Below are positions 2,151-40,369 of a stretch of DNA of 64,000 nt, one piece after another. The stretch comes from Carcharhinus amblyrhynchos (taxonomy: Eukaryota), in the NCBI GenBank assembly GCA_965287045.1, contig OZ336895.1:22754001-22818000 (forward strand), in the 5' to 3' direction. Each line of letters begins with the position of its first letter. Position 1 is the stretch's first letter. The notes below the pieces were generated by a model, which saw only the letters and a program-made list of their open reading frames with translations, ran no database searches and was not told the origin of the DNA. Both the position numbers and the translations under genes were made by a program.

Positions 2151-3286
2151 CTAAAATTTAAAGAAATTAAAACATATGGTTAAAACTTGTAATCAAACTC
2201 AGGTTTAAATTTCTTTACATGCTTGTCTGCATCTCTAAATTGGAAATCTAATTTCTCTATGTGCAACTTTATATCCTAGGTACGGAGCAACTCTAATAAC
2301 TGCAAAACACAGTGAAGTTGAATGACCTGAATTCAAAAATTCACAGTACCTTCAAAATATTTAGAAAATTCTTTTAAGAAATATATGGTTCAGCAGTAAT
2401 AGCTGCTAAGGAACAACCTGAATGTCCTCTGTATGTCTTGTTAATGAAATATCTATAACTTCTTTAGCTTTCTCCAACAGCTTCTCCTCTTGAACTTGAA
2501 TTGTTTGTTGTGTTATGTCCTGTCACATAGAGTATTCGTTTCTATTGGGTCCCACTGTTCTTATGAGGGCAGCTGGGTCTGCACATCTCCATCAATGCCT
2601 GTTTTCAAAGAGGTGCATGATGGCAACCTGGTGACATCAATCCTGTACCACTTCCCTCCCCTCAATGTAGGGAGTCACTAGTCAGCACCTCTCTCCGAGG
2701 AGCTTAGTCAACCTCCACCAAACTTACATCCTCACACTATGTGATATTTGAGGTAACATTCGTAAGTACTGTGTGTGCCTACACCATCCAAAAGAAGGTA
2801 TTCAGTTTTATCTTGTAATATTTTAAGCAACAAATTTGATGTGATCCATCCAAATGGCTGCTAAGTACAAATAATGCTTTTGGCAGCAATTATATGTTGA
2901 TAACACAACTGCTTACTGCTTTATTGTTTCTCACAAGACAAGACAGGCCTTTTAAGTAGATCATTTCCACCGTAAGGTTACTTAAAAAGGAGAACGCTTG
3001 AGTAAACCTCAAATCCATTTGGAGTTATCAGCATTAGACTTTTAAAAAATCTCTCCAAAATGATGACTGAAATTCTCCAAATCCTTAGGTATGAAATGGC
3101 AGACATGAAGTTCTGGGAGGTAAGGTAAAATAAAGGAAGTGGAAGAGCTAAAAGGGGACAACCAAATTAAAGAATTGTAAATCATAGGTAGGAGCAACTT
3201 TATCAAAAAGCGAACACCTCCAACAGTTCAAAGAAAAAAGTGACAGAAGCAAAGAAGAACAAAGACAGCAACAACTAAATGAAGAA

Positions 3287-13043: not shown

Positions 13044-13440
13044 AAAAAAGAAGTGCAACTGTGTAAATGATCATCAGATCAATAATTAAGTTTAATATTG
13101 TGGCATTGTATTTATTTTTTGCATGTTTGTGAATTTTTTTTCTTACAATACATTTAATTGTAACATAGATTTGACTTTATGATCTGATGGGGGAGTATTT
13201 GTGGATAACAATATGGCACCCAGTGATGTCCCTTACAATTTTTTCAATGACTTGATAAGTGGGAAATTATTAATTTTGTAGCACAGCTTTTAAATACCAC
13301 ACACATTTGGAAGCTTTGAGGCATAGCACGGATCTTCCTAAAGCTGCTTTTAATGGTGAACATGGGAATAAAGACCATGATGTGGGAAGGTGTGATGGGC
13401 TTATACCAGAGGAGCCAAGTAACATTTTTAAAAATGTTTT

Positions 13441-13754
13441 ATCCCATCCAAAATACCAAATTCAAATTGAATCCCATTCATGATCCCCACGGGAGAGACA
13501 AACCAGATTCACGCTGATAAGACACAGATATACAGCCCACCTTGGGCTTTATCAAACAAGATCCAAGCTGACAAGATGAGGCATTGCATCCCCTCCCAGA
13601 CTTGATCTAACGGTTCATCTTAGCCAAAAGGCTTTGAAAAATTGCATCAGGCGATGCTGTGGTTTAATTTCTTCAGCCAGCCTGATCATTGACTCCACCT
13701 GAGTCTGGGCAAACCACCTGCATGGTTATAGTTTCACCCCTGTCAGTTAAATGT
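13441..13754 (-). pseudogene. Decayed U1/U2 snRNA-derived chimeric element
   Basis: 13754-13705 matches recalled U1 nt 1-50 at 38/50 ungapped. 13632-13617 is an exact match to U2 nt 12-27 (GCCTTTTGGCTAAGAT). 13534-13514 resembles U2 nt 32-52. Confidence 0.75.
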
Positions 13755-14512
13755 GGGACACTCAATTACGGCTACCCCAGGAGCCAAATAACATTGCCTA
13801 AATGTGACTTGGCAGAGCAAAAGGCACTCCTCAAATAGCTTTGTCCACCCCCAACGCCCCCCCCCCCCCCCCACCCCACCCACCACAAGCCCTCCCCAAT
13901 CCCATATGTGGAATTCAATTCTCTCTACTAGAAATAAATAATCGCTAATAGCATTTTCACGCTGACTCTGGACTCTCTTATAATAAACCACAATTGCTAA
14001 ACTTTGCTTTCATAAATTGCAAAATTCACTGCTGTCAGCATTATTGAAAATAATATTATATTGCTTGCTCATCCAAGAATTAACAGCAATCTTTCCTCTT
14101 ACAGAAAAGAATCATGCATGACAAAAGATGATAAATGCTCTAAAATAATTGTGTTAGTGTAAATTCAAGTGGGGAATGTCCATGTGATACACGTGACACA
14201 CAGAGTTGAGGTCACAGAAGTTAAGTAACTGTTTTTGACTGGGAAAACTTACCAAAAAGGTTCAGTTGTAATTCAACACAAAGTTGAAATAAGGTCAACT
14301 TAAAGTTGTGTCAGCCCTAAAAGAAATATGTTATCGTGTTAACTGTAATGTAAATCTGGTTTGTGGTAGTGTTTTGGCATCTAGAGGCAACATGGGTTAC
14401 AGCAGATAACATGCTGTATCACCCACACTGAGTTTCACACTAACAGTTCTACCCACAAGAAAGGAATAGCTACTTCCCGTCCTTCGTCTTCCCGTCATCA
14501 GACAGATACAGG

Positions 14513-30115: not shown

Positions 30116-30187
30116 CAATTGTTCCTGTCTTGCTGTCCTCAGTTTCAGAGCCAATAGCAGGCCTTGGGCTGCCACCCTGCTCTGGTT
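30116..30187 (-). CDS. NFIC: NFIC internal coding exon (equivalent to exon 3), 72 nt
   Basis: ttttctttccttcag|AACCAGAG...ACAATTG|gtgagt. Translates (E)PEQGGSPRPAIGSETEDSKTGTI, similar to recalled NFIC [24 protein letters not shown]. Phase 1-1, joins the 5286-5360 exon in frame. Confidence 0.92.
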
Positions 30188-30449
30188 CTGAAGGAAAGAA
30201 AAGGTTTGGATGAGTGGAAGAACAGTTGAAATAATACATGAAAAAGCTACAAGGGTAATTAGCTTATAAATTTAATTTTGAAGTGATATGAAGTTCATCC
30301 TGTATCACCAGCTAGTCCCTAACCTCCCAGCAAGGTGCTGCGTAGTGGAATATCCCAGGATGGCTGTGCAATGTCTGCATGAATTCATTAGTAGTTTTCA
30401 TTTCAGTATCCATGAGCTACTGAGGAGAAAGTCACTTCCATTATCAATC

Positions 30450-36762: not shown

Positions 36763-37757
36763 GATAAGAACATAAGAACATAAGAAATAGGAGCAGGAGT
36801 AGGCCATCTAGCCCTTCCAGCCTGCCCCGCCATTCAATAAGATCATGGCTGATCTGAAGTGTATCAGTTGCACTTTCTCGCTTTCTCCCCATAACCCTTA
36901 ATTCCCCTGTCTATCAGAAACCAATCTGCCCGTGACTTAAATATATTTAGCAAGGTAGCCTCCACTACTTCAACAGGCAGAGAATTCCAGAGATTCACCA
37001 CCCTCTGAGTGAAGAAGTTCCTCCTCAACTCCAATCTAAACTGCGCCCCCCCCTTATCTTGAAGCAGTGTCCTCTAGTCCTGCTATCCTTTCTAAGTGGG
37101 AAGAATCTCTCTACCTCTACCCCTCCATCCCCTTCATTATCTTATACGTCTCTATAAGGTCCCCCCTCATCCTTCTAAACTCCAACGAGTACAGACCCTG
37201 TCTATTTAGTCTCTCTTCATAGGCCAACCCCCTCATCTCTGGTATTAGCCTAGTGAACCTCCTCTGCACTCCCTCCAAGGCCAATACATCCTTCTGCAAG
37301 TGCGGCAACCAAAACTGCACACAGTACTCCAGCTGCGGCCTCACCAGTACCCTGTACAGTTGCAGCAAGACCTCCCTGCTTTTATATTCTATCCCCCTCG
37401 CTATAAAGGCCAACATTCCATTCGCCTTCTTGATCACCTGCTGCACCTGCAGACTGGGTTTTTGCGACTTGTGCACAAGGACCCCCAGGTCCCTCTGCAC
37501 CGTAGCATGTTGCAGCTTTTCGCCTTTTAAATAATTATCCCTCCTACTATTATTTCTGCCAAAGTGTATAACCTCACACTTGCTAACATTATACTCCAAC
37601 TGCCAGGTCCTCGCCCACTCGCTCAGCCTATCCAGATCTCTCTGCAGACCTTCCACAACCTCCACACAATTTGCTTTTCCACTCATCTTCGTGTCATCAG
37701 CAAATTTCGTCACCCTACACTCAGCCCCCTCCTCCAGATCATCTATATAAATGGTAA
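36763..37757 (-). mobile_element. Young 5'-truncated CR1 (HER1-like) LINE, RT C-terminal part and 3' UTR
   Basis: ORF 37117-37767 has KFADDTK, RDLGV and LVRPQLEYCVQFW motifs. The 3' tail is a (tcttatgt)n repeat at 36763-36785. Confidence 0.95.
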
Positions 37758-40369
37758 AGATGACCATGTCCTGATTTTTTTAAAGTCAAAGGAGGAAGAA
37801 AAGGGCACAATGACATAACAAGAGTTTTCAAATCAATCTTTGGAGTTAGGGGACCAATGAATATTGGCGAGGACAGGGCGTCAGCAAAATAGACTGAATG
37901 CAGTAGTGGATGTAGCAAATGGCATTTTGTAACTGTTGCGATTTGCAGAACCCATGAGAAAAACACAAAAAAAATTGGAATAATCAAATCTGACAGGAAC
38001 CAGAGTTTCATTAACAGTGAGGATGAGTTGGAATAGAAGCAAAAAATGAAAGTAGAAATATGTGGTCTTCGTGGTGGCAAGAATGTGTAGATTGAAGCTC
38101 AGCTCAGGGTGAAACAGGAAACTGCGGGTGCAAAGCAATGGACTCATTCTGGGTAAGTGATGCAAAATATTATGGATAAAATAGCCAGATGGCAAATGCA
38201 ATGTAACAAGGAAAGCACAAGATAATGGATTTAATTTTTTTGGCCCCATGGTGGTGGTGGGCTTGGAGCTGAGAGGCCGGTAGAATTGCAGGCAGTTGCG
38301 TCAGAACGACAATGCGCTGTTACCAGTCAGGAACTCCCAGGGAGTAGGCTTGCTACCCACTACATAGAAGTGAGAAGCCAATTTGCCTTAACAATTAGTT
38401 ATTTTTTGTGGTGCTTCAGTTATTTTGTCAACAGAAGAGTGTCCCCGGCACCTCATGTGGAGGCCATAATGTCAATGAAGGTAGCCTTCCTGTCACAAGG
38501 ATTGAGAGCCTGAGGCCCCATGCAGCCAAGACGGGACTGTGCATATAAAAGACCGTCCAAAATCTGTTGACTTACTTGTCCATAATGTGCAACCCAGCAA
38601 GCATCTCCATGATGAGGTATCCTCTTGGTGTCCAACCTGTCTCAGCAACACCCATCTCTCCTCGAGGGGCAGCTCGAGAGGTGCTTGCCTTCCAATTGGG
38701 CCGGCAGCATTGAGAACCCACTCATCATCCTTGAGAAGATGGTGAGGCTGCGTCTGTGAAGATCGCTCTGCTACTCTTGGGAAGTACGGTTTTGGGAAAC
38801 TCATTTCGTCCCAGAGCTGGTACCCTGAAGCTCATAATAAAAATCCAGTGCAATGCAGTTTGGATGGAAAATATATAGAAATGGCTCAGTGAAAAACATG
38901 GAAAGATTGGATGAACGGCTAACCATGTGGCTCAAATACATAACTGATTGAATGTGGCAATGCGGTGCATTTTGAATTTGAAAAATGGGTCCCAGAGTAC
39001 AAAAGCAATAAACTTGTACAATGGATTGCATTAGGCAACAATTAGAATACTTCATAATTTTGAACACTTCATTAAAGGAAGACCATCGATAATGTAGAAC
39101 ACAGATAACATTCATTCACCAGCTTGATAGTATAGACAAAAAGAATCTATACTGATGAGGAGATACTTCAGAAAATAAGATTATTTCCACTGTATCAGAG
39201 AATATGAGGAAATTTAATAAAGAATCATACTTTTATTTATGGCTTTAAAGATTATGGCGATCAGAGGATGGGCAGCCAGCCTCTATATTCTGATAGGCTG
39301 GCAGTTGACAAAGACATGGATGAGCGTTTCAGCAGCAGACAGGCTGAGTGTTTTGGTCACCGAAATGAAAGTATTGGGAACGTTTGTGATCAGGATGACA
39401 TGGGATTAGATATTAGGCTTGGGGTAGAGTATTGAAAACAATTTAGCTCAACCTGAGACCAATGACCAGGGATGAAGATGGGATTGGTGCTTAAGGTTAT
39501 GGCACTTGCGACATGAGGCAAGAACGATGGTTTTGGCCTTCCCAATATTTAAAAGTGTGAGGTGAGGTTAGGTTAGGTTAGGTTAAAGGAAATTTCTTTA
39601 AGGAGTGTTACTGGAGAATGGCATGCGTTGCTTCAGGGAATATCTAAAGATCTTACTGCTGACTTTGGGAAAAGTGTTTAAATATTTAAAGTCCAGGAAA
39701 GTACAGGGCTATGAGGAAACTACAGGGCAGTGTTATTCATTTTGGAATATTCCAGCAAACAACTGACATGGTTATTGTGGGCTGCATGATTACCTTCTGC
39801 GCTGTCAAAGGAATCTGCATCTAAAATATCATGCTTTTAGTATGTACCAAACAAGTTGGTTTTGATCTTTCCAAAGTTAAGGTTTTTTCCAAATCCATAA
39901 TGTGCCATCAGAACAACATCTTGGAAGAATTTATCACTCAAGGAACAGCATTTCTGACAATGCATGCTCCTTCAATGATTCACAAAATTGTTAGCTCATC
40001 TTTGCAACTCAGACCTGCCACCCTCTGACCTCAGGTACAAAGCTAATCGGAAATGTGAAGTATGTGGAAAACACAAATAAGCTGTTGAGCGTTATAAATA
40101 GGTTAAGTGTTTAACAGCAAGATGGTGAATGGAACATAATACAGGTAAGTTGTTAAGTTCAATACTAGAATATGGTAGAGGAATGATACAGAGGAATGAC
40201 ACATCCAGCAAGTTTATTTTTCAAACAGTTCAATAGAGTACCAACCTCCTAATGATTGCCCAAACCCAAATGTTTCAGCCATGTCCATTTATAGTCTTTT
40301 TCAAGGTTGAACCAATGGTCATTATCTGTTTGCAGTTGCAAGGGTTGCAATTGCTGATACATTGATAAA

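Follow-up and report, generated by a model that had tools for sequence, protein, structure and literature searches.

The locus

The window, a stretch of 64,000 nucleotides of the genome of Carcharhinus amblyrhynchos, contains exons of the NFIC gene on its minus strand. An insertion on the same strand occupies positions 13427-13772 and is bounded by a flanking direct repeat. It is sense-oriented between two NFIC exons, i.e. in an NFIC intron, and the exons located on both sides bear out the intronic context given in the first-pass annotation. The DNA-binding exon of NFIC is 99% identical to shark NFIC proteins. At 37120-37779 of the minus strand is a 220-codon open stretch, which looks like the C-terminal portion of a reverse transcriptase of CR1/L2 type. 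The features of the NFIC region and the element are as follows.

30117-30188, minus: NFIC coding exon upstream of the element (tblastn with shark NFIC, 21/24 residues)
13773-13795, minus: 5′ copy of the target-site duplication (23 bp), 20/23 to 13404-13426
13755-13772, minus: 18-nt 5′ extension between the duplication and U1 nt 1, seen in the sequence
13705-13754, minus: head, major-type U1 nt 1-50, 42/50 to U1 gene L044 and 34/50 to variant U1 gene L115
13682-13704, minus: older nested variant-U1 piece (about nt 11-36), 25/29 to L115 nt 13-42
13653-13681, minus: probable U4 piece (model positions 22-50), strongly decayed, placed by alignment
13633-13652, minus: linker conserved in the family core and containing a T-run (17-mer with 306 exact genomic matches, control 0)
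13613-13632, minus: U2 nt 12-31 (stem-loop I)
13554-13612, minus: tandem unit 1, composed of a short U2 repeat, an inserted hairpin arm and degenerate U2 nt 31-66
13500-13553, minus: tandem unit 2, made up as unit 1, 83% to the unit 1 region (blastn), U2-derived
13445-13499, minus: U2 stem-loop IIb with an expanded Sm-site region; a deletion has brought it up to the tail
13427-13444, minus: tail with a decayed AATAAA-type signal and an A-rich end, from the alignment of copies
13404-13426, minus: 3′ copy of the target-site duplication
5361 to about 5287, minus: NFIC coding exon downstream of the element (Pfam CTF_NFI E=7.6e-7 and tblastn)
2148-2026, minus: third NFIC exon located

Anatomy of the window copy

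The two copies of the 23-bp target-site duplication are identical at 20/23 positions, and a score as high as theirs was found in 1/3000 random window pairs. With its 18-nt 5′ extension, A-rich tail and flanking repeat, the element is larger than the stretch of 13441-13754 first described.

The reference U1 and U2 genes were drawn from the shark genome itself. Local alignment of the element gave a score of 66.5 against the genome's own U1 and 68.0 against its own U2, each reached by 0/1000 shuffles. The U1 start on the minus strand from 13754 was confirmed, at 42/50 ungapped identities to L044 and 40/50 to L043. In this head, the bases that pair with the 5′ splice site are mutated. The exact match to U2 nt 12-27 was likewise located, at 13632-13617, followed by the 9-nt U2 repeat at 13608-13600. 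The window copy is missing 9 nt of the U2 nt 5-11 region that its relatives keep, and the bases pairing with the branch point are changed in tandem unit 1.

Two stretches of about 65 nt had been taken for unrelated sequence. The first consists of the older U1-variant piece and the probable U4 piece. In the subfamily majority, the older U1 piece scores 49.5 against variant U1 (0/1000 shuffles) and 32.5 against major U1 (6/1000 shuffles). The 3′ part of this spacer, placed in the window copy by alignment, is likely a piece of U4 snRNA, as Rfam U4 positions 22-50 were the best match in 2/3 hand-picked relatives (E=0.016 and E=4; the third had none). A reading of the whole spacer as U1 was rejected, the 3′ part not being significant against U1 (31/1000 shuffles) and U4 giving the better fit. 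The second stretch is the first of the two tandem U2-derived units. The resumption of U2 beyond it stood in part. It extends over a second block, 13543-13440, with 71/97 aligned to U2 23-123, and this block is U2-derived in the majority sequence too (0/1000 shuffles). The closeness of the 21-nt piece on which the resumption had been based is partly drift, the window copy scoring highest of 86 copies over that piece.

Rfam models returned a U1 match of 17.4 bits (E=0.22) for the window copy, which does not reach the gathering score of 69.5 bits, and no U2 match, so that the proposed covariance check gave no significant match. A covariance-model match above gathering score, and with it full-length U1 or U2 snRNA gene identity, is absent in the window. 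Among 20 other family copies, U1 was matched in 2/20 (best E=0.0008) and U2 in 0/20. The element region gave no tRNA, 5S or SRP match. Whole-molecule Rfam models are weak on short, rearranged and decayed pieces, and the null result is put down to low power, since the element aligns significantly when compared directly with the U1 and U2 genes of the same genome.

Structure of the family

The body of the family runs from the older variant-U1 piece through the probable U4 piece, the linker, U2 nt 5-31 and a 24-nt insert to degenerate U2 ending at ~nt 106. The degenerate U2 part of the body majority was matched by 0/1000 shuffles. The middle unit is single in some copies and duplicated in others. 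The element is <500 bp, non-coding and carries a poly-A tail and target-site duplications, and several internal T-runs are present in every majority sequence.

Several heads are seen on this one body. Among 30 motif-picked copies, classed by score thresholds, there were 14 long U1 heads, 6 variant U1, 4 major U1 and 6 unclassified. The long U1 head corresponds to nt 1-96 with one internal deletion common to the copies. Other copies, forming a sister subfamily, are headed by U2 nt 1-40, and 15/30 motif-picked copies of this type begin at U2 nt 1-8. A sister subfamily retains U2 to about nt 169, its long-tail majority scoring 52.5 against U2 101-169 (0/1000 shuffles). Repeated 5′ addition of U1 and U2 pieces is seen in the several heads and in the nested older U1 piece.

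Two different terminal hairpins before the A-tail, found in L071, L081 and many long-head copies, mark further subfamilies. The 5′ end of L184 is a double U2 head with a 7-nt joint, and 6 nt of this joint equal the bases just upstream of the U2 gene on contig C45.

Copy number, age and sharing

The genome search gave 2360 candidates, and 40/40 of those scored had E<=5e-44. Together with the target-site duplications, the A-tails and the shared derived rearrangements, this upheld the suggestion of an snRNA-derived family. Exact matches numbered 306 and 403 for two 17-mers (controls 0); for the first of these, 30/30 sampled places were family members, one of them over 39 nt only. Motif counts put the U1-headed type at about 2,300-2,500 copies, a lower-bound style estimate from the 12-13 common places counted by eye among 100 and 97 listed. 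A 17-mer of the U2-headed subfamily had 1106 exact matches (control 0), and the number of these younger copies is about 2,500-3,000 by motif-count estimate. The whole family is estimated at ~5,000 copies.

When 56 motif-picked copies were compared with one majority, identity ranged from 78-93% with a mean of 85%, the window copy being at 83%. Members of the U2-headed subfamily are 94-95% identical to their own majority and are younger than the U1-headed type, while the youngest copies seen reach 97%. Target-site duplications were found in 7/30 U2-headed copies, compared with 1.3% of 870 swapped pairs, and in 6/69 other full-tailed copies, compared with 1.1% of 4692 swapped pairs.

One U2-headed copy is present in sequencing runs of 9 organisms across 12 studies; no RNA data set is recorded among them, which carries no information about expression. 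Contigs of 4 sequencing runs, one of which may be the window's own species, were aligned to the window. The junction of 3′ flank and element was bridged in 4/4 and the 5′ junction in 2/4, and in the most distant run 32/521 and 38/580 letters differ. The window insertion is common to other organisms up to about 6% diverged. The window element belongs to a shark retroposon family of several thousand copies, of which it is an old and inactive member.

The Rfam result on the window (U1 E=0.22, no U2) would suit a chance similarity or a one-off template-switch chimera, the latter having been offered as an alternative at the outset. A multi-copy family of shared layout, exact motif matches in the hundreds (controls 0) and the orthologous insertion in other organisms refute the chimera and leave this explanation next to no credibility.

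The LINE of the U2 arrays and the U2 nt 39 site

The pattern of an A-run followed by U2 nt 41-53 has 222 matches in the genome (control 0). Among 30 of these loci, 17 distinct places were examined. LINE 3′ ends account for 7 of them and family copies for 4; at 1 place a U2 gene has the A-run alone inserted, and 5 are unassigned. About 0.0004 family copies would be expected among the 17 places by chance. The earlier hint at Keno was borne out to this extent, that family copies are found at the Keno site. Two of the 4 family copies end 14 nt into U2 (39-52) and have a second A-run, the form that read-through of a source lying within U2 would leave. At L146 (G000:C5:75505195), a U2-like copy has a bare A-run at the Keno site, resembling an extremely truncated insertion.

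The LINE in the U2 arrays has long open frames and consists of two ORFs, with an APE endonuclease and a reverse transcriptase. ORF2 encodes RVT_1, endonuclease and zf-RVT domains, and ORF1 encodes ZCCHC3-like domains and a zinc knuckle. Its nearest named relative is the ‘transposon TX1 149 kDa protein’ (47%). A protein atlas search returned generic reverse-transcriptase clusters only, and no connection between ZCCHC3 and Tx1 was found in a literature search. In the fetched U2 arrays, 19/20 of the LINE 3′ junctions resume at U2 nt 39, and the 5′ junctions (n=13) end at U2 nt 26-56, mostly 52-53, some of both sets being array duplicates. U2 nt 39 is the site of Utopia, and Keno has the same flank, according to the available part of PMC4640811. 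Judged by its site, its domains and one Tx1-named relative, the LINE would be Keno-type, of the Tx1 type. It is like Keno in endonuclease type, domain order and the 3′ junction at U2 nt 39, as far as the available parts of PMC4494074 and PMC4640811 describe it. The shark element differs from Keno in that it encodes nothing and is no internal deletion derivative of the LINE.

Further observations were made on these arrays. On G000:C98 (L042, L165-L169) there is a tandem variant-U2 array with a 407-bp period, in which many genes are interrupted by the putative Keno-type LINE, whose long open frames here suggest recent activity. At G000:C45:1.79-1.85 Mb (L170-L173), head-to-tail LINE copies lie ~4 kb apart with U2 nt 38-57 between them, adjoining a U2 array of 10.5-kb period. 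The U2-headed copies L176 and L183 have a repeat in common just 5′ of each, which may be a secondary target.

The sites shared by the family and this LINE may point to use of its enzyme. In L209, the junction between an intact U2 promoter and a LINE copy lies at nt 40, which is the same border as that of the U2 head. The spread of the family by another LINE (L1, another Tx1 lineage or a Utopia-type element), with the copies at the U2 site as incidental captures by Keno, is improbable. It would agree with the confinement of the present LINE, as it appears, to U2 arrays and with the use of the same U2 site by Utopia (available part of PMC4640811). It would also agree with the want of a long common tail; only the AATAAA region of the element's tail resembles the LINE tail, so that the suggested search for a LINE-derived tail yielded this region alone. 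The U2-like flanks of dispersed copies are weak or absent. A U2-like 3′ flank was found in 10/52 dispersed U2-headed copies and in 82/1248 controls (p=0.0025 at one of three thresholds), a rank test on these flanks gave p=0.43, and other dispersed copies had 4/68 compared with 103/1632 in controls. Against spread by another LINE, the duplications of U2-headed copies measure 9-16 bp and fit the mode of 14-15 bp in the LINE of the arrays. Family copies stand directly behind a Tx1-type tail in 2/144 cases, compared with 0/1726 control windows, and L274 adds a further case. The LINE tails identified at the U2 site are all of the endonuclease (APE) type, and no restriction-like-endonuclease element was found among the junctions examined.

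Copies at snRNA promoters

Seventeen matches to the region upstream of U2 were found. L221 and L222 are one event present twice (1095/1101 identical), in which the U2 promoter and U2 +1 to ~17 are separated from U2 25-40 by a retrocopy in antisense that resembles RPS18 (Pfam E=5e-17); the family body comes next and extends to ~nt 181. The upstream region of variant U1 was found at 13 places. The gene is intact at 10 of these, deleted at 1 and interrupted by a family copy at 2. L267 and L274 are family copies in sense inside U1-variant genes (2/13 loci, with 0.004 expected). In L267, about 10 bp are duplicated at U1 nt 65-73. L274 begins with U1 3-37, followed by a LINE inverted at its 5′ end; the family copy lies directly after the LINE tail, and U1 40-85 comes last. 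A further 155 kb around the U2 clusters contained no other promoter-linked copy. At 3 places with major-type U1 promoters there was no family copy, and the head of the window copy may on this account come from template switching.

The promoter-linked copies may point to snRNA genes as the seat of source copies. Those seen are decayed, at 81-93% to the majority, and could be late landings instead of sources. A U1 piece lay upstream in 0/55 U2-headed copies scanned, i.e. no offspring of L267 or L274 was seen.

Other loci of interest were recorded among the snRNA genes. On G000:C40 (L115, L117-L119, L257-L266), variant U1 genes, at least 10 in number, are clustered; they have their own upstream region and show paired changes in stem-loop I. 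Decayed relatives of this variant U1 lie on C18 and C36, and each of them is broken close to U1 nt 36-37. The dispersed U2 retrocopies L132 and L133 include the 3′ flank of the gene, i.e. 3′-extended precursors were retroposed.

Folding of the majority sequences

On the sense strand, the majorities have folding z values of -5.7, -4.2, -3.2 and -2.9 (vs 60 shuffles), and on the antisense strand -4.0, -0.7, -3.0 and -1.5. The window copy shows no unusual folding (z -0.6). In the U2-headed majority, a predicted 15-bp hairpin would bury the bases that pair with the branch point, and U2 stem IIb is preserved by changes on both sides of its pairs. Pair-keeping changes occur in U2 stems I and IIb across subfamilies. 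Such folding and pairing might be expected if a structured small RNA with a host function, a variant snRNA derived from U2, had given rise to the copies as its retro-pseudogenes. This is very improbable, given the several heads and tails on one body and the 97% identity to the majority reached by the youngest copies seen. Furthermore, no intact promoter-linked locus close to a majority was found among 17+14+3 promoter matches.

Proposed mechanism of amplification and head acquisition

The family is probably copied by the Keno-type LINE and transcribed from snRNA-gene promoters upstream of source copies, from which it gains its new heads. The enzyme of the LINE would act on the polyadenylated RNA of the element. 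Most insertions would be dispersed, with a few landing in snRNA genes. A copy that lands in sense inside an snRNA gene would be transcribed from the +1 of that gene, and its offspring would take the 5′ part of the gene as a new head, which would give rise to new subfamilies. Transcription from the +1 of the host gene would account for the start of the heads at snRNA nt 1 and the end of the U2 head at nt 40. The Pol II transcript would be terminated by the AATAAA/ATTAAA of the element. Source copies may have been selected for hairpins that bury the splicing signals of the snRNA.

Alternatively, the heads may have been gained when the reverse transcriptase switched templates to free U1 or U2, with the sources on unrelated promoters and the copies in snRNA genes as dead ends. 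This is the model of Kojima for crocodilian SINEU, argued from the SINEU-2 extensions in the available part of PMC4494074. It agrees with the use of one junction by heads from two U1 paralogues, the occurrence of double heads (L184, L070), the lack of a source at the 3 major U1 promoter places and the 18-nt 5′ extension of the window copy. Even so, the long U1 head has one common internal deletion and yet starts at nt 1, which argues for its transcription from +1 as part of the source. Template switching also leaves aside the end of the U2 head at the LINE junction, the one copy at the U2 start site and the read-through into U2 39-52 in 2 copies, and as the whole explanation it is unlikely. 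The two models are not mutually exclusive, and some heads were probably renewed by a switch of template to free U1 as well.

Comparison with known systems

SINEU-1, -2 and -3 are crocodilian elements, with none found outside crocodilians according to the available part of Kojima 2015 (PMC4494074), on which the statements on SINEU here are based. Their partner is named as Tx1-Mar, of the Tx1 clade and close to Keno, and their transcription is left open in that text. The shark element works like a SINEU, the likeness being one of structure. Both are short, non-coding retroposons with U1 and U2 heads, repeated 5′ additions of snRNA, internal T-runs, a poly-A tail, short duplications and thousands of copies (PMC4494074). 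SINEU-2 combines a 5′ U1 with a 3′ U2, as does the ancestral shark body (PMC4494074). A Tx1-clade partner close to Keno would also be shared, if the link between the shark family and its partner holds (PMC4494074).

The shark family differs in its host and its probable U4 piece. SINEU prefers Mariner-N4_AMi (PMC4494074), whereas the sites seen for shark copies are U2 nt 39 and the interior of U1 genes. Copies linked to promoters were found in the shark, whereas the SINEU paper leaves transcription open (PMC4494074). The heads match the genome's own shark U1 paralogues, which favours an independent (convergent) origin. The full reading, of a shark lineage independent of crocodilians, built from three spliceosomal RNAs and with a life cycle through snRNA genes by way of a Keno-type LINE and external promoters, is put forward tentatively, as somewhat less likely to hold as a whole than to fail in some part.

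Utopia encodes a restriction-like endonuclease and has the same U2 3′ junction, with weakened specificity in crocodilians (available part of PMC4640811). The snRNA/LINE chimeras and snRNA retro-pseudogenes likewise carry an snRNA 5′ part, starting at nt 1, on a retroposed body. Those chimeras are independent single events in the available part of PMC4494074, whereas the deletions, duplications and junctions of the shark family are common to hundreds of copies. Unlike a classical SINE, with a tRNA, 7SL or 5S head and an internal Pol III promoter, the shark element has U1 or U2 heads and internal T-runs.

No report of a shark snRNA-headed SINE was found in searches of the listings of openly accessible literature, and the available parts of PMC5499810 and PMC5381603 make no mention of one. 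Judged from the literature, the family is apparently undescribed; an entry in Repbase or Dfam is possible. The snRNA-headed SINEs have so far been reported from crocodilians alone, which makes sharks the second lineage. The proposed mechanism, if true, would explain both the expression of promoter-less SINEU-type elements and their ever-changing heads. The question of transcription is testable in this genome, where family copies are found at snRNA promoters and the LINE has open reading frames. Shark phylogeny might also draw on the roughly 5,000 old insertions, with their duplications, as markers. In introns, an antisense U1-headed copy would bring with it a potential 5′ splice site.
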